Part shown: positions 2,215 through 32,930 of the stretch, in pieces
Position numbering within the stretch: position 1 is the first letter of the stretch
Layout of the letters: each line of letters opens with the position of its first letter
DNA from: a virus
Lineage: Duplodnaviria; Heunggongvirae; Uroviricota; Caudoviricetes
Reading direction: 5' to 3' (one strand)
Length of the DNA: 32,930 bases
IMG/VR virus record: IMGVR_UViG_2690316161_000021
Span: 1-32,930 of that record
Program-made: the position numbers and the translations under genes
The notes under the pieces: generated by a model
Databases searched by the model: none
What the model saw: only the letters and a program-made list of their open reading frames with translations
What the model was told of the DNA's origin: nothing

Positions 2215-3192
2215 TTACATTCCTCCCAAGGGATTAAACCTCACCGCATCCTGCAAGTAATCCGGCGCAAGATGGGCATAAATCATCGTTGTCTGAATCT
2301 TTGCGTGCCCCAGAATTTTCTGGAGCGTCAGAATATTGCCGCCGTTCATCATGAAATGACTGGCGAAGGTGTGGCGCAGCGCATGAACAGCCTGGCCGTC
2401 GGGAACATCAGGTGCGACCGTTTTGATGACATCGCGAACCAATGGATAATCCAGCGTCGGAAACACCAGTTTCCCGCCCCGTTTTTTGATCTTTTCAAAC
2501 AGGCTTTCAGAAATAGGAACGGTACGGTTTTTGCTGTTCTTCGTTTTTGAAAAAGTGATTCGACAATGAAGAACACGGCGCTGCTCCAGTGCCGCTACCT
2601 CGCCCCATCGCGCCCCGGTCGACAGAAGGATTTCGACAGCCAGCCGTTCATCGGGATTTTCAGCCAGTGCATCCAGCAACTGAACACATTCAGACTTACT
2701 CAGATATCCCATTTCACGCTCGTTAACCTTCATTCCTTTAAGGCCTTGAACGGGGTTATCATTAAGAAAATGGCCGGATGAGATGAGTGCGGTAAACATC
2801 GCGCTTAACGCCCCAATCTCTCGATTTATGGTGCTGGGCTGTATCCCCTGCTCTATCCTGGACACACGTAGCTCGGTGAGCATTGTTGTATTAAGTTTAT
2901 GCACGCACGGGTCATCCATTGCCTCACTCAAGCGCAGCAATTTAAGGCGCGTGTTATGCCCTGACTTCATTAGCTGGCCGTGGTATTTCCACCACAAGTC
3001 AATAAGCACTGACAGAGGACGGCGATCAATAGAGTTTCCTTTCCACTCATTGTTATGCTGTTGCGCCAGCACCCACCGCTCATATAAAACTGCATCCGAT
3101 TTCGTTTTAAATTTTTTGCGAATGCGTTTGCCTTTACGCCCCTCAGGGCGCATGTCAAGAAGATACCCTCCCGGAATTGATTTTATGCTCAT
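2215..3192 (-). CDS. int: Tyrosine-type site-specific integrase (P2 Int-like)
   Basis: C-terminal catalytic region with HxLRHT-type motif (AVHALRHTFASHF) and the catalytic tyrosine region (IQTTMIYAHLAPDYL). The ORF extends to 3342, but the start is placed at the internal ATG at 3192 (MSIKSIPGGYLL) so it does not overlap the repressor gene. Confidence 0.9.
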   Translation of the reverse strand: MSIKSIPGGYLLDMRPEGRKGKRIRKKFKTKSDAVLYERWVLAQQHNNEWKGNSIDRRPLSVLIDLWWKYHGQLMKSGHNTRLKLLRLSEAMDDPCVHKLNTTMLTELRVSRIEQGIQPSTINREIGALSAMFTALISSGHFLNDNPVQGLKGMKVNEREMGYLSKSECVQLLDALAENPDERLAVEILLSTGARWGEVAALEQRRVLHCRITFSKTKNSKNRTVPISESLFEKIKKRGGKLVFPTLDYPLVRDVIKTVAPDVPDGQAVHALRHTFASHFMMNGGNILTLQKILGHAKIQTTMIYAHLAPDYLQDAVRFNPLGGM

Positions 3193-3241
3193 TCGTGAAA
3201 CCCCAGCGTTACAAGACCACCATGCCCCCAGCGCTCCATGA

Positions 3242-3550
3242 TTAGCCGGGCTGTGTGCCAGTCTTGCGGGGTTTTTGAGAAGGCGATGTGCTTTTTGGCC
3301 CATCAGGGGAGAGAGACGGACTGATCTGCCCAGCAGCCTCATTTGTTTTTCCCGTCATAAGCCAATTCATGTACTTAAAAAAGCGAGGGTGATTAACAAT
3401 CTTGATAAGCACTTCGCCCCCTATGTTTTCAATCCGCCCCGTTTCATAACGACGCAAAGTGCCGATAGGCACATCAATCAGGCCGCAAAATTCTTCGCGC
3501 GTTAAATCCTCTGATTCACGAATCACTCTAATTTTTTCACCGATAAGCAT
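3242..3550 (-). CDS. Immunity repressor, P2 C-type
   Basis: About 100-aa protein; the pattern EKI..R.SE.L.R...GTL..YE.GR....P.F.KY..W.MT...ESGQI.P...SP.SGQKTG matches P2 C as I recall it. Sits upstream of int and divergent from the early operon. The start is uncertain (the ORF extends to 3586). Confidence 0.75.
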   Translation of the reverse strand: MLIGEKIRVIRESEDLTREEFCGLIDVPIGTLRRYETGRIENIGGEVLIKIVNHPRFFKYMNWLMTGKTNEAAGQISPSLSPDGPKSTSPSQKPRKTGTQPG

Positions 3551-6860: not shown

Positions 6861-7250
6861 ATGATTGACGCTCATGACTTCACAAGATGGGTGCGCACAC
6901 AGGACACCCGTCTGGCTCCCGTTCTTCAGGGATTATTTGATCTCTACATCCGTGGTCGTGACAACAGAGCACGCACCACAAAACCGGAGAATGCAGACAC
7001 CCTTTATTTCACAGTAGACGACTGCTACCGCGTGGACTTCACACCACACGGGCTGGCGTTGCACTGCCTGACACCACACGGAGAATCACTGCTGGCGTAT
7101 TACGACTCCCCGGCCTCCGTATTTGCGGCAATGCTGGCGCATCGCACTGCTGGCGGGTGTGCCTCGCTGAGTGAATACACCGCTGAATTTAACCGCCTTT
7201 CTGCCCTCTTCTCGCAGGAGTGGCAGCGCGTGACGGGATACCAGCCATGA
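6861..7250 (+). CDS. Hypothetical early protein
   Basis: 129-aa ORF immediately upstream of gene A; its stop overlaps the A start. Confidence 0.45.
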   Translation: MIDAHDFTRWVRTQDTRLAPVLQGLFDLYIRGRDNRARTTKPENADTLYFTVDDCYRVDFTPHGLALHCLTPHGESLLAYYDSPASVFAAMLAHRTAGGCASLSEYTAEFNRLSALFSQEWQRVTGYQP

Positions 7251-10093
7251 ATGAGTTTGCATGGAGCTGGAATGAACCACGGCCAGCCATTGATCCGGCC
7301 AGATTTACGGAGCACAGGCAGGAAACTGAAACCGACCTGCAACGCGCCATCCGTTACTACCTTGAGGCAGACAAAAAGGCTCTGGAAGAACAGGAAGCGA
7401 AGGAGGAAGCCTTTTTCGCACAATCCACCGTGGGTAAAAAACTCATGGCATCCCTTGAGGAAGCCGGACAGCGTGAAAAGCTGGCACAAAGCATCATCAG
7501 CAAGCGTCAGGCAACAGAACAAGACCCGGTGGCCCGTGCTTTTGCCACACTGAAGGTGCTTCCCGTTTATCTGCGTGAACCTCTGAGCCGCCACCTCTCT
7601 TTCCTGCGCAAAAAACAGGAAGCCGATCGCCAGAAAGGCAAAAAGAGCTGGCAGGCTGAACGCTACGCGCGCGGAACCCTGCGCAAAATATTCGAACGCC
7701 TGGACCGCACCGACCACCGCTGGCTGACACCGGGTTATCGCTCCCTTGCCGGACGCGAACGCCTGGATGATTTGCTTTACCTGCCGCAGCTCAACAAGCA
7801 CCAGATACAGACGCTGGCCACCATGACGGCGGCGATGTTCAGCAGCACCTTCGAAAAACTCTGCGATGGCTTTGGCGCGACCGATGGTGAGCTGACCATG
7901 GATGTAACGCTGAAGGCGTATCAGATGCTGGCCCGCATGGCGTTACACCTGCACGCCATGCCTCCACATTATGACGCACTGACAACAGACAAAGACCGGA
8001 GGAACGAACCGGACACGGAGCTGCTGCCGGGCGCAATCCTTCGCCTGACCTGTGCGGAATGGTGGAAACGCAAACTGTGGCTGTTACGTTGCGAGTGGCG
8101 GGAAGAACAACTCCGCGCCGCCTGTCTGGTTTCCAGAAAAACATCACCCTATCTGAGCCAGGACGCGTTAAGCGAGTTTCGCGCACAGCGCGAGAAAACA
8201 CGCGATTTCCTGAAAAGTTTCATGCTGGAAAATGAAGACGGGTTCACGATTGATCTCGAGACGGTGTATTACGCGGGAGTAAGTAACCCGGTTCACCGTA
8301 AGGCAGAAATGATGGCCACCATGAAGGGGCTGGAACTTCTGGCCGAAGCCCGTGGCGACAGAGCGGTGTTTCTGACTGTCACCTGCCCGTCAAAATACCA
8401 CGCAACAACGGAGAACGGTCATCCGAATCCCAAATGGAACGGGGCCACTATGCGCGACTCCAGCGATTACCTGGTTAACACGTTTTTTGCGGCGGTCCGC
8501 AAAAAACTGAACCGCGACGGCCTGCGCTGGTATGGCATCCGCACGGTGGAGCCTCACCATGACGGCACTGTGCACTGGCATATGATGGTCTTTGCACATC
8601 CGGACGAGATTGAAACCATCGTGTCCCACGTCTGCGATATTGCCATTCAGGAAGACCGCCACGAGCTGGGCGATGACATAACTCCGCGTTTTAAGGCGGA
8701 GTACGTCGACGGCTCAAAAGGCACGCCAACCAGCTACATCGCCACCTACATCGGAAAGAACCTGGACAGCCGCGCCGTGGATGGCATCGACCCGAAAACG
8801 GGCAAGCCACGCGTTGACCACGAAACAGGTAAATCAATGGCCGAGAGCGTGGAGCGCGCCATCGGCTGGGCGCGCCTTCACCGGGTCCGTCAGTTCCAGT
8901 TCTTTGGCATCCCCTCCCGTCAGGTGTGGCGTGAACTGCGCCGCCTTGCCAGCCAGATGGCACGCAATCCGGAAGGCCCGCAACGGCTGAAGGATGACGC
9001 AATGGACGCGGTACTCGCTGCCGCTGATGCCGGATGTTTTGCCACCTACATTGAGAAACAGGGTGGCGTACTTGTTCCACGCAAAGACTACCTGATTCGC
9101 ACCGCCTACGACCTCGCAGATGAGCTGAACGATTACGGTGAACAGAGCGTACAGATTTACGGGATCTGGTCGCCGCTCATTGGGGAGTCTTCCCGCGTAT
9201 GCACGCATCCGGATAACTGGAAGCTGGTAAGACGCAAACCGGAAGCGGAAGACAGCGCCCGCGAAAATGGTTTTGACCTTCAGGGCGGCCCTGCCGCCCC
9301 TTGGACTCGGACTCGTGGCAATAACTGTCCCCGTGTACAGGAAACAGGCAACAACGGGACAGAACAGCCGGAAGAACGGCCAGCACCGTGGCCGCAGCTT
9401 CCTGACGGCGTTGAAGTAAATGAATGGATGCGCTCACTGAAACGGCACGAACGCCGGGCGCTGATGCGTTCGCTTCGTGACAAACAGGCAAAAAACAGCA
9501 GCGATGAAATGCAGAACTGGACACAGAGCCGCAAACAGCAGCGGCCTTTGCCTGATAACCACGAGTTACTCGCTAAAGAATGGCGGGAGTCTGCTGAATC
9601 TCTCGGCCTGCATATCGGTGAACAACAGATGCAGCACCTGTTACGGGGCGGCAGTCTGTACGTTGACGGCAGCATCATTGCACCGCAGGGATTTGAAATT
9701 GTACGCAAACCGGATACCCGCCCGGACAGCCGAATCACGCAGCTCTGGCAGCGTCTGAGCCGTAATCATGGCGTAAGCAGCACGGAGATCCGCCATAACC
9801 CGGTCGCCAGCTATCTGGCACAGCTGGGGGCATCAGACCCTGAAGCCGCCGCACGCCTGGCATCCACACTTCAGCAGGACCAGAACACCATGAAAACACC
9901 CGTTACCGTGCTTTCTGACATGCTGCGCGCCATCCGCGACGCAGAGCACGCACAGAGAATCAGTGAAACCACTGAACGCGCCAGCCGCAAAGCAGACCTG
10001 CTGCGGGGTGGCCTGACCAGTGGAAACAAAAAACAGACAGAAACGGGACTCACGAATCCCGTAAATGAGCAAAAAACGCGCAGCGATATATGA
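7247..10093 (+). CDS. A: Replication initiation endonuclease, P2 gpA family (rolling circle)
   Basis: About 950 aa with an HUH-type motif (HHDGTVHWHMMVF) and a tyrosine-containing region (YIATYIGKN) typical of P2 A-type initiators. The start could be 7220 or 7247; the C-terminal roughly 250 aa looks like an extension. Confidence 0.85.
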   Translation: MNEFAWSWNEPRPAIDPARFTEHRQETETDLQRAIRYYLEADKKALEEQEAKEEAFFAQSTVGKKLMASLEEAGQREKLAQSIISKRQATEQDPVARAFATLKVLPVYLREPLSRHLSFLRKKQEADRQKGKKSWQAERYARGTLRKIFERLDRTDHRWLTPGYRSLAGRERLDDLLYLPQLNKHQIQTLATMTAAMFSSTFEKLCDGFGATDGELTMDVTLKAYQMLARMALHLHAMPPHYDALTTDKDRRNEPDTELLPGAILRLTCAEWWKRKLWLLRCEWREEQLRAACLVSRKTSPYLSQDALSEFRAQREKTRDFLKSFMLENEDGFTIDLETVYYAGVSNPVHRKAEMMATMKGLELLAEARGDRAVFLTVTCPSKYHATTENGHPNPKWNGATMRDSSDYLVNTFFAAVRKKLNRDGLRWYGIRTVEPHHDGTVHWHMMVFAHPDEIETIVSHVCDIAIQEDRHELGDDITPRFKAEYVDGSKGTPTSYIATYIGKNLDSRAVDGIDPKTGKPRVDHETGKSMAESVERAIGWARLHRVRQFQFFGIPSRQVWRELRRLASQMARNPEGPQRLKDDAMDAVLAAADAGCFATYIEKQGGVLVPRKDYLIRTAYDLADELNDYGEQSVQIYGIWSPLIGESSRVCTHPDNWKLVRRKPEAEDSARENGFDLQGGPAAPWTRTRGNNCPRVQETGNNGTEQPEERPAPWPQLPDGVEVNEWMRSLKRHERRALMRSLRDKQAKNSSDEMQNWTQSRKQQRPLPDNHELLAKEWRESAESLGLHIGEQQMQHLLRGGSLYVDGSIIAPQGFEIVRKPDTRPDSRITQLWQRLSRNHGVSSTEIRHNPVASYLAQLGASDPEAAARLASTLQQDQNTMKTPVTVLSDMLRAIRDAEHAQRISETTERASRKADLLRGGLTSGNKKQTETGLTNPVNEQKTRSDI

Positions 10094-10138
10094 GGCGCGC
10101 ACAAAACAGGCAAAAACGGGATTTCAGAATCCCGTAAA
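10030..10138. repeat. Two near-identical hairpin-containing repeats straddling the gene A stop
   Basis: AAACGGGACTCACGAATCCCGTAAA at 10041-10065 and AAACGGGATTTCAGAATCCCGTAAA at 10114-10138, each with a 6-bp inverted repeat ACGGGA/TCCCGT; both are preceded by AAAACAG-CA-AAA. Confidence 0.7.
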
Positions 10139-10169
10139 CGATTAATTAATCAACATAAGGAAAACCGAC

Positions 10170-11129
10170 ATGAAAATTTACATCGACGACGGCTCCACCA
10201 ACATCAAGCTGGCATGGACTGAGAACGGCGAACGCCGCAACGCCATCAGCCCGAACAGCTTCAAGTCGGAATGGTCTGCGCCGTTCGGTGGCTCGCAGCC
10301 TGCTAACTACATGCTTGATGGCGTGCGCTATGGTTTTGATCCGGTCAGCGATCGCTTTGTCCAGACGACCGACACGCAATACCAGTACAGCGATGTGAAT
10401 GTCATTGCCATTCATCACGCGCTGGTCAAATCAGACATCACGCCACAGGAAGTGGATGTGGTTGTTACCCTGCCACTGAGCGAATATTTCGACACAAACG
10501 CACAGCCGGACATGGCCAACATCAACCGCAAAAAAGCGAACGTCATGCGCCCGGTGGAGTACCAGAACGGCGAAGCATTCACTATCCGTAACGTACGGGT
10601 TATGCCTGAATCCATTCCGGCTGGCTTTAAAGCACTGGCTGACATGAGTCCGTTTGAATCCCTGCTGATTGTGGATTTGGGCGGAACCACGCTGGATGTG
10701 GCAAAGGTTCAGGGGCAACTGGCAGGTATCAGCCAGGTGTTTTGCGATCCACACGTAGGCGTTTCTCTTATGGCCGATGCCGTACTGTCGGTGATGGCCA
10801 CTAACGGTATGCGCACCAGTCACCACATCGCCAATACCATTATCGAACATCGCCATAATGAAGCCTGGCTGCGCCAGCACATCCACAATGACGCGCATTA
10901 CGCCAGCCTGATGGCGGTTATTCGTGAAAAGGAAGAAACACTGAAACAACGCGTGATCCGCGCGCTGGCGGTTTTTTCGGGTTACGGGCGGGTGATGGTT
11001 GTCGGTGGCGGGGCGGAGATTGTGGCACCCGCTATCCGCGAAGCCTGCGGAGTTAATGCGACTTTCATCGCGGACGGGGTGCCACAGTTTGCTCTGGTTA
11101 ATGGGCTGTACGCAATGGACAAGGAGTAA
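10170..11129 (+). CDS. parM: ParM/StbA-like actin-type segregation ATPase
   Basis: 319 aa with actin-fold motifs IDDGSTNIKL, DLGGTTLD and VVGGGAE. From memory it is collinear with plasmid R1 ParM (YSDVNV, ERKKAN, VMPESIPAG); not verified by search. Confidence 0.8.
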   Translation: MKIYIDDGSTNIKLAWTENGERRNAISPNSFKSEWSAPFGGSQPANYMLDGVRYGFDPVSDRFVQTTDTQYQYSDVNVIAIHHALVKSDITPQEVDVVVTLPLSEYFDTNAQPDMANINRKKANVMRPVEYQNGEAFTIRNVRVMPESIPAGFKALADMSPFESLLIVDLGGTTLDVAKVQGQLAGISQVFCDPHVGVSLMADAVLSVMATNGMRTSHHIANTIIEHRHNEAWLRQHIHNDAHYASLMAVIREKEETLKQRVIRALAVFSGYGRVMVVGGGAEIVAPAIREACGVNATFIADGVPQFALVNGLYAMDKE

Positions 11130-11133
11130 ACCA

Positions 11134-11445
11134 ATGACGACACCAACCAGACGGATAAGTTTCTATCTGAAGCCCGCCGCCGTCAAGAACGAAGGAGAAG
11201 CATGCGCCTGGCTGGACAGCCTTACACCAGAAGCCCGCAAAAGCGGCCAACGCGTGGCTTTTCTGGCCGGGCTGGCACTTCTGAAGACGAATCCGGCAGA
11301 GGCTTACCGACTGGCCGCATGGGCTGATGATGAGATGTTACCTGTGACACAAATCAGCTCAAAAAAGTTTGAAGCACAGTCTGCACCAGTGGCTAAGATA
11401 ACCAGCCAGATGGCTGGGAATATCCGGGCGTTATTTCCTGAGTAA
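11134..11445 (+). CDS. parR: ParR/StbB-like small DNA-binding partner
   Basis: 103 aa starting 4 nt after the parM stop with AAGGAG RBS; N-terminal RRISFYLKP and LAGLAL resemble R1 ParR as I recall it, and the C-terminus ends IRALFPE. Confidence 0.6.
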   Translation: MTTPTRRISFYLKPAAVKNEGEACAWLDSLTPEARKSGQRVAFLAGLALLKTNPAEAYRLAAWADDEMLPVTQISSKKFEAQSAPVAKITSQMAGNIRALFPE

Positions 11446-11573
11446 AAGCATCTGCGCGAAAAATGCTCACGTTTATAGAGACAGTATCATTCCATTTGGC
11501 ACACTTACTTCAATAATCGATCTGTTAAACAAATAGATTGTCTATTATCTATCGATTAAAACGATCAATTATC

Positions 11574-11601
11574 TTGACAGTAATGTGCCTTTTTGTAAGA
11601 T
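11574..11601 (+). promoter_or_regulatory. Candidate sigma70 promoter for the hotspot moron gene
   Basis: TTGACA (11574-11579), 16-bp spacer, TAAGAT (11596-11601) with TG one base upstream (extended -10). Confidence 0.45.
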
Positions 11602-11735
11602 CGTTCGCATTGTGAGCGACAAGATAATTGCGCGGCATTGTCCATGCAAAACGCCCCAATAGCAGCAACTATTGGGGCGTAAAACTCGGTCGGACTCACT
11701 TAACCTGATATGCGTGCCTTCCGAAGTAAATCAAA

Positions 11736-11804
11736 ATGTGCGTCGTATATTTTATTGCTTACACGCACCTCTGTAAAGGCACGCATATTTTTCCTATGAG
11801 GTAA
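11736..11804 (+). CDS. Possible 22-aa leader peptide (MCVVYFIAYTHLCKGTHIFPMR)
   Basis: Short ORF ending 5 nt before the GTG start of the 89-aa gene and covering its RBS; it sits inside an inverted repeat. Speculative. Confidence 0.2.
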   Translation: MCVVYFIAYTHLCKGTHIFPMR

Positions 11805-23252: not shown

Positions 23253-23853
23253 TTCGTTGTTACCACCATCAGCCAGCAATTTCATGCGTTGTGCCGAAGC
23301 CGTCGGAACACGCATTACAGACATTCCGGTAGACCTCAACACGCTGTGGTCGCCGGACACCTGCCCGGTGCATCTGCTGCCTTATCTCGCCTGGGCGTTT
23401 TCCGTTGACCGCTGGGATCGCAACTGGCCGGAAGAGACAAAGCGACAGGTAATTCGTGATGCATGGCTGATACACCGACACAAAGGGACCATCAGCGCAC
23501 TGCGAAGAGCCGTGGAGCCTCTCGGCTACCTGATTGAAGTAAAGGAGTGGTGGCAACTCAACGAGGAGCCAGGAACATTTCGCATTGTTGTCGGAGTACT
23601 TGATCAGGGCATCACCGATGAAATGTATCAGGAACTTGAGCGCCTTATTGCGGATGCAAAACCAGTAAGTCGCCATCTGACGGGGCTGGCGATCAGCCTG
23701 AGTGTGAACGGAAAGATTTTCGTTGGTACGGGATGCTATCACGGCGATGCCCTGACGGTTTATCCCTACACCCCGGAGTCCATTATTGTCGAAGGGGATT
23801 ATTTCCCTGCCCCGGCCATTCATTTAATTGATAATCTGAGAGTAAACGCATGA
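23245..23853 (+). CDS. I: Baseplate/tail protein (P2 gpI-like)
   Basis: About 200 aa from the ATG at 23245, overlapping the J stop. Confidence 0.7.
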   Translation: MSNSLLPPSASNFMRCAEAVGTRITDIPVDLNTLWSPDTCPVHLLPYLAWAFSVDRWDRNWPEETKRQVIRDAWLIHRHKGTISALRRAVEPLGYLIEVKEWWQLNEEPGTFRIVVGVLDQGITDEMYQELERLIADAKPVSRHLTGLAISLSVNGKIFVGTGCYHGDALTVYPYTPESIIVEGDYFPAPAIHLIDNLRVNA

Positions 23854-25331
23854 CAGTGAAATACTACGCCATTCTGACTAATCAGGGCGCAGCACGACTG
23901 GCTAACGCGACGATGCTCGGCAGTAAGCTGAATCTGACGCAAATGGCCGTTGGTGATGCAAATGGTGTGTTACCAACACCAGACCCTGCACAAACAAAAC
24001 TGATTAACCAGAAACGCATTGCACCGCTGAATCTTCTGAGTGTTGACCCTAACAATCAGAGCCAGATTATTGCGGAGCAAATCATCCCTGAAAACGAGGG
24101 AGGATTCTGGATCCGTGAGATTGGTCTTTATGATGATGAAGGTGTACTCATTGCGGTGGCAAACTGCCCGGAAACGTACAAACCGCAGTTGCAGGAAGGC
24201 AGTGGACGCACCCAGACTATCCGCATGATTCTGGTTGTCACGAACACCGAAGCTATCACGCTGAAAATCGACCCGTCTGTGGTTCTGGCAACCCGCAAAT
24301 ATGTGGATGATAAAATCTCAGAGCACGAACAGTCACGACGTCACCCGGACGCCTCGCTGACCGCAAAAGGTTTTACTCAGTTAAGCAGTGCAATTAACAG
24401 TGAATCAGAAACACTGGCCGCAACACCGAAAGCGGTTAAGGCTGCATATGACCTGGCTAACGGGAAATATACCGCCCAGAACGCCACCACTATACAAAAA
24501 GGGATTGTTCAGCTCAGTAGCGCCACGAACAGCACGTCTGAAACGCTGGCAGCGACACCAAAAGCTGTTAAGGTGGTAATGGATGAAACGAACAAGAAAG
24601 CACCATTAAACAGCCCGGCACTGACCGGAACGCCAACAACACCAACAGCGCCACAGGGAACTAATAGTACCCAGATCGCAAGCACGGCTTTCGTTATGGC
24701 CGCGATTGCCGCACTTGTAGATTCGTCACCTGATGCACTGAACACGCTGAACGAACTGGCTGCGGCGCTGGGCAATGACCCGAATTTTGCGACCACCATG
24801 ACTAACGCGCTTGCGGGTAAGCAACCGAAGGATGCCACCCTGACGGCGCTGGCGGAGCTTGCTACATCAGCAGATAAACTCCCATATTTTACAGGGGCAG
24901 ATCGTGCCGCGTTAACCGCGTTGACAAGTGTTGGACGTGCCATTCTTGGTAAAACCAGCACTCAGGGAGTTCTTGATTACCTTGGTTTGGGAGAAGCGGC
25001 AAAACGGAATGTGGGAACAGGGGAAAATCAGATACCAGATATGTCTGCATTTCCATCTGGCAAAAACTGGTTTCAGTTACCAAGTGGTCATATTGTCCAA
25101 ATGTTTTCGATGAATGTTTATGGGGCGGACACTAACGGAACTACAGGTAATTTCCCTATTGCATTTCCTTCAGGCGCACTGGCTGTTAGTGCCTTATGGT
25201 CAGATGGCTCATTAACCGCTGCTCCGACCTTTAAACTTATGGGGTACACGACAACAAGGACATCAGTAACCTTAAAAGTATCAACCGGAAATGGTTTGTA
25301 TGGAACTATGATTATCGCAATAGGAAGATAA
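23850..25331 (+). CDS. H: Tail fibre protein (P2 gpH-like) with exchangeable C-terminal tip
   Basis: 493 aa; conserved N-terminus (MAVGDANG...GGFWIREIGLYDDEGVLIAVAN) and an internal duplicated QLSSA.NS.SETLAATPKAVK motif. A hix-like site lies inside the gene at 24970-24995. Confidence 0.85.
   Translation: MTVKYYAILTNQGAARLANATMLGSKLNLTQMAVGDANGVLPTPDPAQTKLINQKRIAPLNLLSVDPNNQSQIIAEQIIPENEGGFWIREIGLYDDEGVLIAVANCPETYKPQLQEGSGRTQTIRMILVVTNTEAITLKIDPSVVLATRKYVDDKISEHEQSRRHPDASLTAKGFTQLSSAINSESETLAATPKAVKAAYDLANGKYTAQNATTIQKGIVQLSSATNSTSETLAATPKAVKVVMDETNKKAPLNSPALTGTPTTPTAPQGTNSTQIASTAFVMAAIAALVDSSPDALNTLNELAAALGNDPNFATTMTNALAGKQPKDATLTALAELATSADKLPYFTGADRAALTALTSVGRAILGKTSTQGVLDYLGLGEAAKRNVGTGENQIPDMSAFPSGKNWFQLPSGHIVQMFSMNVYGADTNGTTGNFPIAFPSGALAVSALWSDGSLTAAPTFKLMGYTTTRTSVTLKVSTGNGLYGTMIIAIGR
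24970..24995 (+). other. Candidate Gin/Hin/Pin-type crossover site inside H (TTCTTGATTACC TT GGTTTGGGAGAA)
   Basis: 26-bp site with 12-bp half-sites flanking a 2-bp core, resembling the hix/gix pattern as recalled; its 3' 15 bp are identical to the site at 31411-31425. Confidence 0.55.
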
Positions 25332-25332
25332 T

Positions 25333-25437
25333 ATGAATCAATATATTTATTCCCCTTCGGAAAATGCTTTTTATGCTGTTAATTTAAAAAACACTTATGA
25401 AGTAAATGGAACATGGCCTGCTGATGCATTAGAGTAA
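25333..25437 (+). pseudogene. G: Tail fibre assembly gene (gpG/Tfa-like), 5' fragment interrupted by IS66
   Basis: AGGAAG RBS and ATG at 25333; 34 codons (MNQYIYSPSENAFYAVNLKNTYEVNGTWPADALE) ending in a stop created by the IS end; the remainder is on the minus strand at 32466-32816. Confidence 0.8.
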
Positions 25438-25486
25438 CCGGCTCATTTAAACCGTCTGGTCTGTTTCCTCCGGCTCTACAAAAATA

Positions 25487-26164
25487 ATGTCCATCATTTT
25501 TAATGGACACTATCGTATGAAACACCGGACCTGGATCACTGAAGCTTTACGTCTTCACTTTGAAGAACATTTACCCCGGGTTGTGGCCGGGCGTCGCCTG
25601 GGTGTACCAAAATCAACAGTTTGTAGTATGTTCGTGCGCTTTCGGAGAGCTGGCCTTTCGTGGCCTTTGCCCGCAGGCATGTCGGAGCAGGAACTTGATG
25701 CCTGCCTTTACGGACAATTTTCCACGGTACCAGTCGTACGTCCTGAAAGCACCGTTATATCCGAAGCCCCCGTGGTAAAAAAACGTCCCCGGCGGCCCAA
25801 CTTCCCTTATGAGTTTAAAATCGCCTTAGTGGAGCAGTCACTGCAGCCCGGAGCCTGTGTGGCGCAGATCGCCCGGGAAAACGGAATCAACGATAACCTG
25901 CTCTTCAACTGGCGCCATCAATACCGGAAAGGTGGCCTGCTGCCTTCCGGAAAAAATATGCCGGCACTGCTTCCCGTGACGTTAACGCCGGAGCCGGATA
26001 ATAAAATCCCGGCCCCCGCACAGGAACCAGAGCAGATAAATACACCGTCCGACAGTCTGTGTTGTGAGCTGGTTCTGCCGGCCGGAACTCTCAGGCTTAA
26101 AGGTAAACTGACGCCGGCGTTATTACAGACACTTATCCGCGAAATAAAAGGGAGCAGCCACTGA
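25487..26164 (+). CDS. tnpA: IS66-family accessory protein TnpA (orf1)
   Basis: First ORF of the element, ATGA-coupled to tnpB; start codon uncertain. Confidence 0.6.
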   Translation: MSIIFNGHYRMKHRTWITEALRLHFEEHLPRVVAGRRLGVPKSTVCSMFVRFRRAGLSWPLPAGMSEQELDACLYGQFSTVPVVRPESTVISEAPVVKKRPRRPNFPYEFKIALVEQSLQPGACVAQIARENGINDNLLFNWRHQYRKGGLLPSGKNMPALLPVTLTPEPDNKIPAPAQEPEQINTPSDSLCCELVLPAGTLRLKGKLTPALLQTLIREIKGSSH

Positions 26165-26511
26165 TGATATCTCTCCCTGCAGGTTCGCGTATCTGGCTGG
26201 TTGCAGGTATCACCGATATGCGAAATGGCTTTAACGGCCTGGCATCAAAAGTTCAGAACGTCCTGAAGGATGACCCGTTCTCCGGACACCTGTTCATCTT
26301 CCGCGGACGCCGGGGTGACCAGATAAAAGTGTTGTGGGCTGACAGTGACGGACTGTGCCTCTTCACCAAACGCCTGGAGCGGGGCCGCTTCGTCTGGCCA
26401 GTCACCCGTGACGGCAAGGTGCACCTTACTCCGGCTCAGTTATCCATGCTTCTTGAAGGTATCAACTGGAAGCACCCGAAACGAACGGAACGCGCTGGAA
26501 TCCGCATATAA
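26164..26511 (+). CDS. tnpB: IS66-family TnpB (orf2)
   Basis: 115 aa, typical size and position for IS66 orf2. Confidence 0.8.
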   Translation: MISLPAGSRIWLVAGITDMRNGFNGLASKVQNVLKDDPFSGHLFIFRGRRGDQIKVLWADSDGLCLFTKRLERGRFVWPVTRDGKVHLTPAQLSMLLEGINWKHPKRTERAGIRI

Positions 26512-26530
26512 CCCGTTGTAAAGTGAGGAT

Positions 26531-28102
26531 ATGGACACCTCACTTGCTCATGAGAACGCCCGCCTGCGGGCACTGTTGCAGACGCAACAGGACACCATCC
26601 GCCAGATGGCTGAATACAACCGCCTGCTCTCACAGCGGGTGGCGGCTTATGCTTCCGAAATCAACCGGCTGAAGGCGCTGGTTGCGAAACTGCAACGTAT
26701 GCAGTTCGGTAAAAGCTCAGAAAAACTTCGTGCAAAAACCGAACGGCAGATACAGGAAGCACAGGAGCGAATCAGCGCACTTCAGGAAGAAATGGCGGAA
26801 ACGCTGGGTGAGCAATATGACCCGGTACTGCCATCCGCCCTGCGCCAGTCTTCAGCCCGTAAACCGTTACCGGCCTCACTTCCCCGTGAAACCCGGGTTA
26901 TCCGGCCGGAAGAGGAATGCTGTCCTGCCTGTGGTGGTGAACTCAGTTCTCTGGGATGTGATGTGTCAGAGCAACTGGAGCTTATCAGCAGCGCCTTTAA
27001 GGTTATCGAAACACAACGTCCGAAACAGGCCTGTTGCCGGTGCGACCATATCGTGCAGGCACCAGTACCTTCAAAACCCATTGCACGCAGTTATGCCGGA
27101 GCGGGGCTTCTGGCCCATGTTGTCACCGGGAAATATGCAGACCATCTGCCGTTATACCGCCAGTCAGAAATATACCGTCGTCAGGGAGTGGAGCTGAGCC
27201 GTGCCACACTGGGGCGCTGGACAGGTGCTGTTGCTGAACTGCTGGAGCCGCTGTATGACGTCCTGCGCCAGTATGTGCTGATGCCCGGTAAAGTCCATGC
27301 TGATGATATCCCCGTCCCGGTCCAGGAGCCGGGCAGCGGTAAAACCCGGACAGCCCGGCTGTGGGTCTACGTCCGTGATGACCGTAACGCCGGTTCACAG
27401 ATGCCCCCGGCGGTCTGGTTCGCGTACAGTCCGGACCGGAAAGGTATCCATCCACAAAATCACCTGGCCGGTTACAGCGGTGTGCTTCAGGCCGATGCTT
27501 ACGGTGGTTACCGGGCGTTATACGAATCCGGCAGAATAACGGAAGTCGCGTGTATGGCTCATGCCCGGAGAAAAATCCACGATGTGCATGCAAGAGCGCC
27601 CACCTACATCACCACGGAAGCCCTGCAGCGTATCGGTGAACTGTATGCCATCGAGGCAGAGGTCCGGGGCTGTTCAGCAGAACAGCGTCTGGCGGCAAGA
27701 AAAGCCAGAGCCGCGCCACTGATGCAGTCACTGTATGACTGGATACAGCAACAGATGAAAACACTGTCGCGTCACTCAGATACGGCAAAAGCGTTCGCAT
27801 ACCTGCTGAAACAGTGGGATGCACTGAACGTGTACTGCAGTAATGGCTGGGTGGAAATCGACAACAACATCGCAGAGAACGCCTTACGGGGAGTGGCCGT
27901 AGGCCGGAAAAACTGGATGTTCGCGGGTTCCGACAGCGGTGGTGAACATGCGGCGGTGTTGTACTCGCTGATCGGCACATGCCGTCTGAACAATGTGGAG
28001 CCAGAAAAGTGGCTGCGTTACGTCATTGAACATATCCAGGACTGGCCGGCAAACCGGGTACGCGATCTGTTGCCCTGGAAAGTTGATCTGAGCTCTCAGT
28101 AA
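26531..28102 (+). CDS. tnpC: IS66-family transposase TnpC
   Basis: 523 aa with N-terminal leucine-zipper-like region, a CxxC...CxxC zinc motif and a DDE-type core; ends 30 bp before the right IR. Confidence 0.85.
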
Positions 28103-28132
28103 ATATCAATACGGTTCTGACGAGTCGCTTAC

Positions 28133-30216
28133 GGAGCGATGCCGCCAGTGGGCAGGCATTTCTTGCAATGGCTGGTTTTACTCCGCAGGCCATTCAGGCT
28201 GCGCTTCCCGGCGTGCTGAGCATGGCAACGGCTGGCGGTATGGATCTCGGCGAGACGGCGGATATTGGCTCAAATATCCTGACGCAGTTCGGCCTTTCTG
28301 CTGACCAGATGGACCGGGTCGGTGACACACTTACCGCAGCGTTTACCCGTACCAACACTGACCTTCGCGCACTGGGTGAAACCATGAAATATGCAGGTCC
28401 GGTGGCGGGCAAGCTGGGAATATCGCTGGAGCAGGCCGCAGCGATGGCGGGCGTACTGGCGAATATGGGTATCAGGGGAAGTGATGCCGGGACGGCAATG
28501 CGTGCCAGCCTGGCTCGTCTGGCATCACCGCCAAAGGCGGCGGCAGAAGCTCTGAAAGAGCTGGGCGTGTCCGTCTCTGATGCGAACGGCAAAATGCGCC
28601 CGATGGAGGATTTGCTGGCCGACCTTTATAAAGCCACCCGCAAATACGGGGAAGTTGACCGGGTATCGTTCTTTAAGGACATTGCCGGAGAAGAGGCTTT
28701 CACATCATTTATGGCCCTCGTTGATGCGGCAGGTGACGGCTCCTTACCTAAACTGAGAAAAGAACTTGAAGGCGCGCGCGGTGAGGCTGAGCGCACGGCA
28801 AAGGTTATGGCCAACAACCTTGACGGCGATCTGAAATCACTCGGCAGTGCATGGGAAGGGTTGCGCATCCGCATTGCAGATCTGATTGACGGTCCGCTGC
28901 GTTCTGTCACGCAGTGGCTAACGCGGGTGGTCTCAAAGGTGACGGCACTGGCGCAGGCCCATCCTGTACTGACGCGCCAGCTACTGATTGCAGGCGGTGC
29001 GCTGCTGGCAGTGACTGCAACCGTAGGCTCGTTGTCGCTTGCTCTTGGTGTGCTTGCTGGCCCACTGGCAAAACTGCGTCTTGGTTTTTCCCTCCTGACC
29101 GGATCAATGAATGCTGTCAGGCTCCTGCCAGCACTATGGGGAATGGTGACGGGTTCCGTTTCTTTGCTGGGGGGTGCTATCGGGGCGCTGTTCAGTCCGG
29201 TTGGTCTTATCGTGGCTGCGCTTGCCGGAGCTGCCGTTCTTATCTGGAAATACTGGGATCCCATCAGGGCATTTTTTGCCGGGGTGTTCAGCGGGATTAT
29301 GGAAAGGCTGGCCCCGTTGCGCGAAACCTTTGAACGGTTTGGTCCTGTTTTTGACGCAATCGGAAGCGGGATCAGCCAGGTGTTTAACTGGTTTAAATCG
29401 CTGCTGTCACCGATGGAGTCCAGCAAGGAAACGCTGGATAAATGTACCAGTGCTGGCGAGATATTCGGTAACGTTCTTGGCGGTGCGTTACAACTTGTTC
29501 TGACGCCTGCAAAAATGCTACTGGATACGCTGGCGTGGATACTTGAAAAACTTGGCGTCCTTCCGGATGAAGCGGAAAGGGCGCGCAAGAAAATCGAAGA
29601 CGCACAGCGTGCGGCCATTCTTCAGGACAAGGTTGCCTTGCTTCAGGGGGACCTGGCGAAAATCAATCCGCCGAAGCCTGTGGAAAATGGCAATGGCACC
29701 GGAGGTGATAAACCCAAAGACAACAAACCGCTCACAGACAGCAATACCGGTACGCTACGCAGACTCAGCAAAATTGCTGATAACACAGGTAAGCTGGTTG
29801 ATGAGACGAAAAAACGCATTGGCCCCGGCGATATTGTCTTTAAGAACCTGCCCCGCGCACTTGCTGTTCGTGGGGAGTGGCAGGAGCGGAAGATTGCGCA
29901 GGTCAGTAAGCCTGCTTCCGCAATCAACATCACACCCGTGGTCCCGACTCCTCTGCCTCCGGCGCTGGTCCCTGTTGTTGCGGCCAGCTCCCGCCCGGTG
30001 GCGGAGGCCATACGATCGCCAGTGGCATCAGTTCCTGCAACTTCCCGTAACCGGGAGCCTGTTGTCTCCGGATTTGGCGGTGAAATTCATGTTCATCTGC
30101 ATAACGTTGTTACGCAGAATCCCCGCGAACTGGCGAAACTGGTCGGTGAAATGGTCAGGGCAGAATTGGAACGACGCGACCGTGCCGGACGTGGCAGTTT
30201 TTACGATAAAGATTGA
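28133..30216 (+). pseudogene. T: Tail tape measure protein (P2 gpT-like), 5'-truncated at the IS66 boundary
   Basis: The reading frame is open from the first base after the IS; 682 codons from the first ATG at 28168; Ala/Gly-rich with hydrophobic central segments; followed by gpU. Confidence 0.75.
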
Positions 30217-30222
30217 GGAGTC

Positions 30223-30717
30223 ATGGCCATGATGATGATCTACGGCATGTTTGTTTTTGAGCTGCGCACATTGCCGCATCAGCAGTTACAGCAAAATAAA
30301 AGCTGGCGGCATGTGAAAAATGAACGCGTTAACCGTTCAGCAAGCTGGCAGTATATCGGGGCAGGCGATGATCGCATCGTGCTTTCTGGTGTGCTTTATC
30401 CTGAAATCACAGGTGGCGAAGTGTCGCTGTCGCTGCTGACCACGCAGGCGTATACAGGACGCCCCTGGCCTCTGATTGATGGCGTCGGACAGATTTACGG
30501 CATGTATGTACTGACTGAAACGAATACGACCCGCTCCGAGTTTGATCGCTACGGTAAGGCGAAAAAGATAGAATTTTCACTGACTCTTGAACGCTGTGAT
30601 GAGGATTTGCGGGAGCGCCTGCAATCCTCATCGTTCAGTGATATGCTGTCCGGCTTCAAAGATAAGGTCACATCATCCCTTAACAGCGCGGCCAGCTCCG
30701 TTAAAGGGCTGTTTTGA
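30223..30717 (+). CDS. U: Tail protein (P2 gpU-like)
   Basis: 164 aa; N-terminal MMMIYGMFVFELRT pattern and position after T. Confidence 0.75.
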   Translation: MAMMMIYGMFVFELRTLPHQQLQQNKSWRHVKNERVNRSASWQYIGAGDDRIVLSGVLYPEITGGEVSLSLLTTQAYTGRPWPLIDGVGQIYGMYVLTETNTTRSEFDRYGKAKKIEFSLTLERCDEDLRERLQSSSFSDMLSGFKDKVTSSLNSAASSVKGLF

Positions 30718-30724
30718 TTAACGC

Positions 30725-30758
30725 AAAACCGCTAATGGTCAGATTAGCGGTTTTCATT
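30725..30758. terminator. Bidirectional intrinsic terminator between convergent U and the invertase gene
   Basis: 8-bp stem CCGCTAAT/ATTAGCGG with 6-nt loop, flanked by an A-run upstream and a T-run downstream. Confidence 0.6.
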
Positions 30759-31343
30759 TTCCTGAATCTGCCTGATTGTTTCTTCAGCCTGTATATCGCC
30801 TACAGGGTGATAACGATAAATCGTCGATATGCCGATGTCGTAAATGATCGCCAGTTGTTTCCTGTCATGACCGTTTTTAATCAGCCTCGCTATTTGCTCG
30901 TGTTGTTCTTTTGTCAACTTCGGGCGACGTCCGCCAATGCGTCCTTGTGCGCGTGCTGCTGCCAGCCCGGCCAGTGTACGCTCTACAATTAATTCACGTT
31001 CCATTTCGGCTAAAGCTCCCATGACGTGAAAAAAGAAACGCCCCATGGGTGTTGATGTGTCAATGCTGTCCGTCAGACTACGGAAATTAACACCTTTTTC
31101 CCGCAATTCCTCAATAAGCGTGATCAGGTGTTTCATACTTCTGCCCAGTCTGTCCAGCTTCCAGACAACCAGCGTATCTCCTTCTGATAGCGTTCTGAGC
31201 AGTTTTTTCAATCCCGGTCTGGCTGATTTCGTTCCGCTGATTTTATCTTCAAAAATCAGTTCACATCCTGCGCACTCCAGCGCGTTACGCTGCAATTCTG
31301 TATTCTGGTCATTTGTTGATACGCGGACATAGCCAATAAGCAT
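30744..31343 (-). CDS. pin: Serine recombinase, DNA invertase of the Gin/Hin/Pin family
   Basis: 199 aa; N-terminal MLIGYVRVSTNDQNTELQ with catalytic serine and a C-terminal HTH; very similar to e14 Pin as recalled. Confidence 0.9.
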   Translation of the reverse strand: MLIGYVRVSTNDQNTELQRNALECAGCELIFEDKISGTKSARPGLKKLLRTLSEGDTLVVWKLDRLGRSMKHLITLIEELREKGVNFRSLTDSIDTSTPMGRFFFHVMGALAEMERELIVERTLAGLAAARAQGRIGGRRPKLTKEQHEQIARLIKNGHDRKQLAIIYDIGISTIYRYHPVGDIQAEETIRQIQENENR

Positions 31344-31370
31344 GATGGATCCCCTGAATAAAAACCGGGG

Positions 31371-31892
31371 ATGATGCCAGTTAGCCGTAATCTCTGCATT
31401 TTCTTAAACGTTGGTTTGGGAGAAGGCTCTGCATTACCTGTTGGTGTGCCTGTTCCATGGCCTTCAGCCACACCGCCAACAGGCTGGCTGAAATGCAACG
31501 GTGCGGCTTTTTCTGCTGAAGAATACCCGGAACTGGCAAAGGCTTATCCGACAAATAAATTACCTGATTTACGTGGTGAGTTTATTCGTGGCTGGGATGA
31601 CGGGCGCGGTATTGATGCAGGACGTGTTTTATTGAGCATTCAGACAGGGATGCTGGAAAAACACCGCCATATTGTTGTTGCCAATGATGGTTACGACACA
31701 AAAGATGAATGGGAACTGGCTACGATTTTCAAAAAGACATACACACAAGGACGTGGACTTGATGCCACAAATACAGGAGGGAGTCTGATCCCATCACCGA
31801 CACTTCATTCACGAGGGAGTATCGGTAATACTGGCGGGAGTGAAACCCGTCCACGAAATATTGCATTTAACTATATCGTGAGGGCTGCATAA
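31371..31892 (+). CDS. Alternative tail-fibre C-terminal (variable) segment with tail-collar-like motifs; not a free-standing gene
   Basis: The frame begins at the crossover site (GLGEG matches GLGEA in H); contains LPDLRGEFIRGWDDGRGID and a C-terminal NYIVRAA typical of phage tail-fibre tips; the ORF ATG at 31371 is probably fortuitous. Confidence 0.6.
   Translation: MMPVSRNLCIFLNVGLGEGSALPVGVPVPWPSATPPTGWLKCNGAAFSAEEYPELAKAYPTNKLPDLRGEFIRGWDDGRGIDAGRVLLSIQTGMLEKHRHIVVANDGYDTKDEWELATIFKKTYTQGRGLDATNTGGSLIPSPTLHSRGSIGNTGGSETRPRNIAFNYIVRAA
31399..31424 (+). other. Candidate invertase crossover site (TTTTCTTAAACG TT GGTTTGGGAGAA)
   Basis: Shares its 3' 15 bp with the site inside H; lies between the invertase gene and the alternative tail-fibre tip. 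Confidence 0.55.
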
Positions 31893-32494
31893 TGGATAAC
31901 GCCGTATTAAATAGCGAGCTTATTGCCACGAAGGCGGGGAATATTACCGTCTATAACTATGATGGTAAAACTCGGGAATATATTTCTACTTCAAATGAAT
32001 ATCTTGCCATTGGTGTCGGTATCCCTGCATATTCCTGTCTGGATGAACCTGGTATACATAAGGCGGGTTATGCTATCTGCCGTTCGATGGATTTAAACTC
32101 ATGGGAATATGTGCCAGACCATCGCGGTGAAATCGTCTATAACACCGAAACGGGAGACGCCAAAGAAATCACAGCTCCGGGTGATTATCCTGAAAATACA
32201 ACCACTATCGCCCCGTTAACGCCATTCGATAAATGGGATGGTAAGAAATGGGTGACCGATACTGAGGCACAACACGGTGCCGCAGTAGAAGCGGCAGAAG
32301 CACAGCGCCAGTCACTGATTGATGCAGCAATGGCTTCCATCAGTCTGATTCAACTGAAATTGCAGGCCGGACGTAAACCGACGCAGGCAGAAACAACCAG
32401 ACTTAACGCTGTGCTGGATTACATTGACGCGGTGACGGCAACAGATACCAGCACCGCGCCGGATGTCATCTGGCCTGAACTGCCGGAGGCGTAG
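31892..32494 (+). CDS. Tail fibre assembly chaperone (Tfa) paired with the alternative tip
   Basis: 200 aa; C-terminal ...LDYIDAVTATDTSTAPDVIWPELPEA is homologous to the C-terminus of the split G gene; converges with the G 3' fragment. Confidence 0.7.
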   Translation: MDNAVLNSELIATKAGNITVYNYDGKTREYISTSNEYLAIGVGIPAYSCLDEPGIHKAGYAICRSMDLNSWEYVPDHRGEIVYNTETGDAKEITAPGDYPENTTTIAPLTPFDKWDGKKWVTDTEAQHGAAVEAAEAQRQSLIDAAMASISLIQLKLQAGRKPTQAETTRLNAVLDYIDAVTATDTSTAPDVIWPELPEA

Positions 32495-32816
32495 GCCATT
32501 CAATATCTGGCGCACTGGAGGTATCAACCAGCTCCAGTGCCTCCAGATAATCCAGCCACAAATTATATTGCGCCAGTTCCTCACCTTTCAGACGACCAAT
32601 AGCGGCTTTACCGGGCCATTGTTTACTGTTCATGTATTCGTTGGCCTGGTTAATCAATAATTGCCTCTCTGATTCGGCCTGTTCAATAAGTTCCTCATGT
32701 GATGGTGGAGGTATTTCAGCCCATGTGGGAAAACCATTTTCCCCTGCAACTCGGATTTTCCCTTGTGGCGGTTCCGCCATATATTTTACAGAAATGTCAT
32801 CAGGAATATCTAATGC
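32466..32816 (-). pseudogene. G: 3' fragment of the split tail fibre assembly gene G
   Basis: Minus-strand frame reads ALDIPDDISVKYMAEPPQGK...DIEWPTPPAVQAR; joined to the 25333-25433 fragment across the shared 8-mer it gives an intact Tfa of about 147 aa. Confidence 0.8.
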
Positions 32817-32930
32817 GTAAGCGACTCGTCAGAACCGTATTGATATTTACTGAGAGCTCAGATCAACTTTCCAGGGCAACAGATCGCGTACCCGGTTTGC
32901 CGGCCAGTCCTGGATATGTTCAATGACGTA
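32817..32930 (-). mobile_element. IS66-family element, copy 2 (partial, inverted; right IR plus tnpC 3' end)
   Basis: 32817-32930 is the exact reverse complement of 28019-28132 (the tnpC 3' end and right IR of copy 1). Confidence 0.9.

Follow-up and report, generated by a model that had tools for sequence, protein, structure and literature searches.

The locus raises the question of whether an IS66-mediated inversion of about 4.7 kb splits the tail-fibre assembly gene of a prophage, as a preliminary description of this DNA had proposed. The window, i.e. the whole stretch of 32,930 nucleotides analysed here, ends where draft contig CYBY01000004.1 ends (assembly GCA_001285845.1; the record ends at its position 242450). 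The E. coli prophage at this locus is P88-like (Xuanwuvirus, P2-family) and carries two ISCro1 junction pairs. It displays P2-type late genes and an FI-U block with an invertase converging on H-tfa, as P88-like phages do, and is not a canonical P2. A host other than E. coli was considered and rejected: the low identity stems from the diversity of the cassettes, and the assembly has its proteins labelled E. coli.

The ISCro1 insertion in the tail-fibre assembly gene

A complete ISCro1 (IS66 family, 2699 bp) lies at 25434-28132 on the plus strand, identified by Pfam and by alignment to a named copy: it presented 99.8% identity (2699 nt) to the annotated ISCro1 of E. coli E7476 (2698 nt, RefSeq annotation). 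Its three ORFs, tnpA (25487-26164), tnpB (26164-26511), and tnpC (26531-28102), encode proteins of 225, 115, and 523 aa that matched HTH_Tnp_1, TnpB_IS66, and LZ_Tnp_IS66/zf-IS66/DDE_Tnp_IS66, respectively. For ISCro1, a length of 2699 bp and a target duplication of 8 bp have been described (PMC12115866). The copy retrieved here shares with the described element the three ORFs, the GTAA-type imperfect terminal repeats, and the 8-bp duplication (GCATTAGA in the window, CATCATCA in E7476, and TAACCTTT in pT28R-1); nothing of note sets it apart, and it is an ordinary copy.

Two inverted IS66 copies had been described. The first is the complete element, whereas the second is only a 114-nt stub of the ISCro1 right end (32817-32930, minus strand) at the end of the contig, where it forms the perfect inverted arm of a 115-nt repeat (28019-28133 against 32816-32930).

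The gene interrupted by the element is tfa147. Its 5′ part (25333-25433, plus strand) comprises 33 codons and 2 nt, and the ORF stops at a TAA within the IS, giving a 34-aa product. Its 3′ part (32466-32816, minus strand) includes the second copy of the target (32809-32816, TCTAATGC on the plus strand). Joining 25333-25433 to the reverse complement of 32466-32808 restores a 444-nt ORF that matches, at 444/444 nt, the uninterrupted Caudo_TAP gene (147 aa) of AP025180.1 (L003), so the two flanks are indeed the halves of one Tfa gene. The preliminary description was also right that the 8-mers left of each copy are reverse complements: GCATTAGA, which abuts the left end of ISCro1 (25426-25433, plus strand), and TCTAATGC (32809-32816). 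For two given 8-mers, the chance of such a match is 4^-8. GCATTAGA is single-copy in the intact tfa147 (L003 10918-10925), and the two BLAST pieces at the intact AP025180.1 locus overlap by exactly these eight bases. The tfa147 insertion therefore has an 8-bp direct target duplication, with GCATTAGA next to the left IS end (25426-25433) and, as the reverse complement of 32809-32816, next to the right IS end, in agreement with the earlier reading of an IS66-family insertion within a Tfa gene.

The same tfa147::IS junctions are found in the sister assemblies CYCC and CYCB, at contig ends and together with an intact 935-aa tape-measure protein T, and three sister assemblies have the 34-aa product among their gene calls. 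Searching with the 34-aa and 104-aa products, we found this allele in no closed genome, only in draft contigs and one Logan contig. Because sister strains with an intact T carry the same tfa147::ISCro1 allele, it is the ISCro1 insertion that splits tfa147 and not an inversion, which had been proposed as the cause. In the scheme that we propose, ISCro1 first inserted into tfa147, one of the two tail-fibre assembly genes in a Pin-invertible fibre cassette, duplicating GCATTAGA; this step we regard as established.

The tape-measure gene and the scaffold joint

To the right of the complete ISCro1 lies the 3′ part of T (28136-30216, plus strand; Pfam PhageMin_Tail), from codon 243 of 935. It contains a 682-aa ORF on the plus strand that starts at an internal ATG (28168), and from 28136 on it is 100% identical to the intact T of L006, L013, and L003. 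The three bases between the two, 28133-28135, match neither the IS nor T: they read GG followed by an N in the deposited record, which the window shows as A. The N is seen at this position in the deposited contig in all of L005, L011, and L012. Since the intact T reads CACCGCAGGCGATGCC, homology to T begins at 28136.

The preliminary description had taken GGAGCGAT (28133-28140) as the target of a second insertion and predicted ATCGCTCC right of copy 2. Both include the artefact base. Because the record has N at 28135 and homology to T starts only at 28136, these 8-mers are artefacts that correspond to no real sequence. The junctions that bear on 28133-28135 and on the target duplication are ...GAGTCGCTTAC|GGCGATGCCGCC and ...CACCGCAGGCGATGC|GTAACCGGCTC. 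The T piece starts at the first base past the sequence (IS plus G) that is common to the two junctions at the right end of the IS, which is the pattern expected of a node boundary in an assembly graph. The real target in T is likely GGCGATGC; the true T junction would most probably be ...CGCTTAC|GGCGATGCC, with that target. If so, the sequence right of copy 2 is predicted to be GCATCGCC followed by TGCGGTGAACTGCG. With an N at 28135 and the other flank outside the window, the T target pair is not readable.

The second insertion seems confined to the source strain. The 682-aa T product is present in the source assembly and in no other assembly, and 0 of 4522 matching records among complete E. 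coli genomes reached 80% coverage of the IS-T junction. The predicted T 5′|IS junction was absent from species-representative genomes, and the protein collection held neither products across the IS-T joint (44-56 aa) nor 5′-partial T 3′ products. Of the seven predicted T 5′-IS fusion products, one exists in the protein collection, once: the 245-aa form, which corresponds to target GGCGATGC. The match possibly is a coincidence, as its cluster consists of 690 partial T N-termini of many lengths, so this product may back GGCGATGC only weakly. As a second step, a further ISCro1, oriented oppositely to the first, would likely have entered codon 243 of T in the source strain only.

Linkage and orientation of the 4.7-kb segment

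As written in the scaffold, 28136-32816 is reversed when compared to all intact relatives examined, namely AP025180.1 (L003), E. coli UTAK-1, and phage P88, which encode T and U on one strand and H and tfa on the other. In-silico re-inversion of this segment, a check that the preliminary description had proposed, restores exactly the layout of the relatives. Its claim of an inverted 28133-32816 is thus correct for the scaffold as written, but the linkage behind it is a single-N joint and the segment starts at 28136.

All four IS junctions are identical for a flipped and an unflipped segment, and only the linkage across the 2.7-kb IS differs. For this reason, looking for the 8-mer and the T 5′ end beyond copy 2, as had been proposed, cannot tell a flipped from an unflipped arrangement. 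The spread of the GCATTAGA pair over both copies is what an inversion predicts, but the path of the contig alone gives the same spread with an unflipped segment. In the record, tfa 5′-IS is linked to T 3′ through the single-N scaffold joint of a short-read-style draft: the N lies three bases past copy 1, the contig ends inside copy 2, and the sequence is not physically continuous across the IS copies. Sister assemblies break at ISCro1, where the same pipeline left the IS unbridged. Moreover, a single-N joint in the sister contig CYCB01000022.1 ties mid-tfa200 to mid-H and duplicates sequence already in contig 3 of the same assembly; judged from these sequences, that joint is evidently false. 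The assembly accessions were not mentioned in the papers searched.

As to the third step, the data fit both orders of the 4.7-kb segment that the copies enclose. We slightly favour two simple insertions in opposite orientation through which the scaffolder would have taken an arbitrary path. We give an unflipped genome about an even chance, regard a truly flipped one as a serious though lesser possibility, and consider anything else unlikely. The unflipped order agrees with the exact identity of the rejoined tfa147 and its single-copy target, with the tfa147::IS junctions at contig ends beside an intact T in CYCC and CYCB, and with a window that stops at a contig end. It also agrees with the N at 28135 and the node-boundary-like start of T homology at 28136, with the false joint in CYCB01000022.1 and the unbridged IS of the sister assemblies, and, weakly, with the single 245-aa product, coincidence allowing. 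Furthermore, where ISCro1 and IS66 events have been documented, a simple insertion with a direct 8-bp duplication came first and homologous recombination after it. However, the sole physical sequence on hand has the flipped order, and scaffolder joints normally need read-pair support. Besides, a spacing of just 4.7 kb between the ISCro1 copies hints at a local event, the inversion would be the direct product of an intramolecular replicative one, and recombination between inverted repeats of 2.7 kb does take place in RecA+ cells.

A real inversion could have arisen by RecA homologous recombination, in which a crossover between two independent, opposite ISCro1 insertions (in tfa147 and T) flips 4.7 kb and swaps the 8-bp flanks. 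The flipped order of the deposited contig and the tfa147 flanks on different IS copies would follow directly; inversions through homologous recombination between IS copies are common (PMC3072379), and copies of ISCro1 and IS66 are known to serve as substrates for recombination. Yet we hold this route rather unlikely, with a linkage that is a single-N joint, a second copy that is a contig-end stub, and a pipeline that produces false N joints. The second insertion is also unique to the source strain and the sister contigs are 100% identical over ~10 kb, so the insertion is recent and a flip would have had little time to occur. Alternatively, a real inversion could be the product of a single step: by intramolecular replicative transposition, the tfa147 ISCro1 would have moved 4.7 kb into T and thereby generated the second, inverted copy, the flipped segment, and an 8-bp duplication of the T target in inverted form. 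Both copies lie close together within one prophage and the product geometry is exactly the layout of the scaffold. We consider this improbable: we found no evidence for replicative transposition in the IS66 family, where the ISCro1 and IS66 events found were simple insertion and homologous recombination, its end structure is indistinguishable from that of the homologous-recombination route, and the doubts on the N joint apply equally. To our knowledge, the mechanism of IS66-family transposition is still undefined, and a true one-step event would attest, at the level of sequence, to a replicative (Shapiro-type) pathway in this family. Slightly more improbable still is that T contains no second IS; the break at 28136 would then come from the assembly, and the IS-T joint would be a pure mis-scaffold. 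A branch from another P2-like prophage sharing the T 5′ end could produce this; the joint has its N, GG fits T only with one base counted twice, arbitrary piece ends and a false joint are seen in the sister assembly, and junction-spanning ORFs and T 3′ partial products were not found in the protein collection. But the start of the piece coincides exactly with the point at which the IS|GGCGATGC path parts from the IS|GCATTAGA path, and its 4.8 kb greatly exceed the ~0.7-0.8-kb duplicated pieces of the sister assembly. The scaffolder also requires read pairs joining the IS end to T 3′, and the 245-aa form of the T 5′ product is consistent with a duplication of 8 bp. With a second IS, the junctions of the T insertion would be CGCTTAC|GGCGATGCC and GGCGATGC|GTAACCGG. 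Under either order of the segment, the prophage is defective, with T and one tfa split.

The tail-fibre switch and known systems

The preliminary description overlooked a Pin-type invertase and a tail-fibre switch at this locus. The tail fibre gene H (23850-25331, plus strand; 493 aa; Pfam Phage_tail_fib, Phage_fiber_2, and Gp53-like_C) is fused here to a gp53-like C-terminal cassette (state B), and in L003 the same constant part of H bears a Collar-type C-terminus (537 aa). Past T lie tail gene U (30229-30717, plus strand; 162 aa; Pfam Phage_P2_GpU) and, at 30744-31343 on the minus strand, a 199-aa Pin/Hin-type serine DNA invertase (Pfam Resolvase and HTH_7, E-values 6e-52 and 1e-12), listed as DNA invertase or pinE in the annotation of relatives. 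The silent alternative fibre C-terminus follows (31371-31892, plus strand; 172-173 aa; Pfam Collar), which is joined to H in L003 and L007, and then tfa200, the second tail-fibre assembly gene (31892-32494, plus strand; 200 aa; Pfam Caudo_TAP_N and Caudo_TAP). The left crossover site (TTCTTGATTACC-TT-GGTTTGGGAGAA; 24970-24995, plus strand) lies inside H, at the point where the window and L003 cease to be collinear, and the right one (TTTTCTTAAACG-TT-GGTTTGGGAGAA) at 31399-31424, plus strand. We take them to resemble hix/gix sites. They form a direct repeat in this scaffold and an inverted repeat in the intact L003. Both orientations of the switch were found: state A (H-Collar-tfa200) in L003 and L007, and state B (H-gp53-tfa147) in the window and L014.

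The block described as inverted contains half of the invertible tail-fibre segment. Inversion by Pin itself was rejected as the cause, because the two sites bracket whole cassettes and cannot part the tfa147 halves. If the 4.7-kb inversion is real, it would turn the Pin sites into direct repeats and the switch would be locked or disabled, in an already defective prophage.

P88 and other Xuanwuvirus (Peduoviridae), including Citrobacter phage phiSM, share the arrangement of D, opposite-strand FI-FII-E-T-U, invertase, two fibre cassettes, and converging H-I-J-W-V. In this group, T and U naturally converge on H. P88 presents ~91% DNA identity to this prophage over T 3′-U-invertase, but its T and tfa are intact and without IS. 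Invertible tail-fibre segments of the Hin/Gin/Cin/Pin kind include the Mu G segment, the P1 C segment, and the e14 P segment. As in these, a serine invertase lies beside two opposed cassettes, each with a fibre C-terminus and its cognate tfa, with 26-bp boundary sites, one of them in the fibre gene, and both switch states among relatives; unlike in these, one cassette carries an IS and the scaffold sites are direct, not inverted.

IS-flanked rearrangements are documented in a 0.59-Mb inversion in Citrobacter rodentium, flanked by ISCro4 and due to homologous recombination between IS copies (PMC3072379), and in IS66-flanked deletions in Agrobacterium plasmids, recognised through mismatched 8-bp flanks (PMC6778807). 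Here too, identical IS copies bracket a segment, the 8-bp duplication of one insertion sits on two copies, and the orientation is opposite to that of relatives. However, our segment is 4.7 kb, inside a prophage, and seen in a draft scaffold only, with an N at the critical joint, whereas PCR, read pairs, or closed sequence demonstrated the linkage in those cases. Prophage decay is already known to show itself routinely in IS insertions within tail genes and in IS-flanked inversions, and the 4.7-kb inversion, even if real, would be an ordinary IS rearrangement. The lesson is methodological: a target duplication shared by two IS copies proves an inversion only with physically continuous sequence across the IS, and it is no such proof here, because an N lies at one joint and the contig ends inside the other copy.

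Prophage layout and tail-fibre switch

The prophage had been described as P2-like. It belongs to the P2 family, but its gene order and best phage matches (P88-like Xuanwuvirus and Citrobacter phage phiSM, ~91% identity) make it P88-like rather than canonical P2. A chromosomal FecCD-type gene (1-981, minus strand) and the integrase (2215-3342, minus strand) are followed by the gpA replication gene (7220-10093) and then by the portal, terminase, capsid and baseplate genes. The intact locus L003 of the complete genome AP025180.1, E. coli UTAK-1 and phage P88 share the order H-tfa, tfa'-Hv' (other strand), invertase, U-T-E-FII-FI converging on H, and D with ogr. Thus, this comparison identifies tail gene U and tape-measure gene T on the strand opposite tail-fibre gene H as the natural layout.

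The tail region holds a Pin/Hin-type serine invertase (30744-31343, minus strand; Resolvase and HTH_7 domains), a silent Collar-type fibre C-terminus (31371-31892) and a second assembly gene, tfa200 (31892-32494). Comparison with L003 located two crossover sites, 24970-24995 inside H and 31399-31424, which we take to be hix-like; they are direct repeats in the window scaffold and inverted repeats in L003. The invertase and these sites would govern a fibre switch between gp53-like/tfa147 and Collar/tfa200 cassettes. Both states, with the IS lying in the cassette, were seen in sister assemblies: locus L007 has H-Collar-tfa200, and L014, like the window, has H-gp53 followed by the 5' part of tfa147.

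Three further features were observed. The prophage includes a ParM/StbA-like actin-type segregation gene (10170-11129), with two 42-nt direct repeats upstream, each with a hairpin (10027-10068 and 10100-10141), and a small ORF after it (~11134-11445); together, 10027-11445 resembles a partition module of the plasmid type, here within an integrated prophage of the P2 family. Between the integrase and FecCD-type permease genes, a 184-aa coiled-coil ORF (1174-1728, minus strand) contains five tandem 33-nt (11-aa) repeats (1346-1506). In two other draft contigs (L009 9099-10603 and L010 7186-8675), only ~320 bp separate baseplate gene V from tfa200, and W, J, I and H are absent, a pattern that suggests a member of this prophage family with a deletion.

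ISCro1 in the tail-fibre assembly gene

Two inverted IS66 copies had been proposed. Copy 1 (25434-28132) is complete: its ORFs (225, 115 and 523 aa) have IS66 domains (HTH_Tnp_1, TnpB_IS66, DDE_Tnp_IS66), and it shows 99.8% identity over 2699 nt to the ISCro1 annotated in E. coli E7476, a simple insertion with the direct 8-bp repeat CATCATCA on both sides. Published ISCro1 measures 2699 bp and has an 8-bp duplication (PMC12115866). A perfect 115-nt inverted repeat (28019-28133 vs. 32816-32930) supports the second copy, but only as a 114-nt stub at the contig end: the window ends where draft contig CYBY01000004.1 does (242,450 bp; GCA_001285845.1, E. coli).

The preliminary description was right that the 8-mers beside the two copies, GCATTAGA (25426-25433) and TCTAATGC (32809-32816), are reverse complements and that the flanks are halves of one gene. 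When 25333-25433 is fused to reverse-complemented 32466-32808, a 147-aa Caudo_TAP protein results. The rejoined gene (tfa147) is identical to the intact gene of AP025180.1 at 444/444 nt, and the overlap between the two BLAST pieces of L003 is the 8-bp target itself (L003 10918-10925). Judged by this identity and overlap, the split-gene observation is correct, far beyond chance.

It is the insertion, not an inversion, that splits the gene. Sister assemblies of the same lineage (100% identity over ~10 kb), CYCC01000004 with CYCC01000019 and CYCB01000003 with CYCB01000022, carry the tfa147::ISCro1 junctions of the window at contig ends and keep an intact 935-aa T. On these comparisons, the tfa147 insertion predates the event in T and arose independently of it.

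Homologous tail-fibre cassettes carry ISCro1 at least three times. In E7476 (ISCro1 at L001 13903-16600), the target CATCATCA lies, relative to the window target GCATTAGA, some 15-20 nt (a few codons) deeper inside the homologous tfa of a Mu-like prophage. E. coli QA-1986 630 (L021 ~9010-11740) has ISCro1 between H and tfa147 in a prophage of canonical P2 layout. An identical 34-aa tfa147::IS product follows a Mu-like prophage fibre in Logan ERR1512448 (L015 9647-10112; 98.7% identity, counted from the crossover site). This recurrence could reflect an insertion hot spot or cassette exchange between prophages.

The joint with the tape-measure gene and the 4.7-kb segment

CYBY01000004.1 has N and the window A at position 28135, three bases past the right end of copy 1; this is the sole difference between them over 17.6 kb and falls exactly at the IS/T joint. 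Intact T reads ...CACCGCAGGCGATGCC... in three relatives and the window reads ...CGCTTAC-GG-[N]-GCGATGCC; therefore, T homology starts at 28136. Consequently, the 8-mer GGAGCGAT described right of copy 1 is not real sequence, and its predicted counterpart ATCGCTCC loses its basis. The T piece begins at the first base past the sequence (IS plus one G) common to the IS-T and IS-tfa junctions, and this start looks like an assembly-graph node boundary. We consider CGCTTAC|GGCGATGCC, with GGCGATGC as target, the most likely true junction. For this target, the predicted 245-aa T 5' product (stop in the IS end) has one instance in the protein collection, EEQ3938317.1 on a 2.2-kb contig, which lends weak support since 690 partial T N-termini with many different lengths fall in its cluster. 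The other predicted products were not found in that collection, nor was the IS-T junction in any complete E. coli genome; only the GCA_001285845.1 assembly has the truncated T product. That T contains no IS at all seems very improbable to us.

In the deposited order, 28136-32816 runs opposite to its orientation in all relatives, and in-silico re-inversion gives exactly L003 with the Pin segment in the other state. To this extent the deposited order agrees with the proposed inversion of 28133-32816, but the linkage is a single-N joint and the inversion is unproven. With a for H and tfa 5', b for the stretch from tfa 3' to T 3' and c for T 5', the arrangements a-X-IS>-X-b-Y-<IS-Y-c (unflipped) and a-X-IS>-Y'-b'-X'-<IS-Y-c (flipped) have all four IS-flank junctions in common and differ only in linkage across the 2.7-kb IS. 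Thus, these junctions cannot decide orientation, and the proposed check, an 8-mer and the T 5' end right of copy 2, cannot discriminate, being expected in both.

Scaffolders and gap closers leave single Ns where adjacent contigs cannot be merged. The same assembly series left this IS unbridged in sister strains. Moreover, CYCB01000022.1 contains a wrong single-N joint (L013 position 8846) from mid-tfa200 (window 32107) to mid-H (window 24179), which duplicates sequence also in contig 3 of that assembly and yields chimeric ORFs of 88 and 386 aa; it is probably a mis-scaffold from a culture in which both switch states were present. For these reasons, the scaffold path deserves little weight.

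Possible histories and known systems

We see about an even chance that the locus would hold two simple ISCro1 insertions in opposite orientation, joined along an arbitrary scaffold path. A real inversion by homologous recombination between the copies is rather unlikely: such IS-mediated inversions are well known (PMC3072379), but the second insertion is recent, so that a flip would have had only a short time to occur. On the other hand, the short distance between the copies is a hint of a local event, such as a one-step inversion by intramolecular replicative transposition, which we consider quite improbable; the ISCro1 and IS66 events that could be documented consist of simple insertions flanked by direct 8-bp repeats, with the copies then recombining by homology. 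Under every scenario, the prophage is defective. All its components –ISCro1, a Pin/Hin-type fibre switch, a P88-like prophage and an IS-flanked rearrangement– are of known kind, and nothing at the locus is new in kind.
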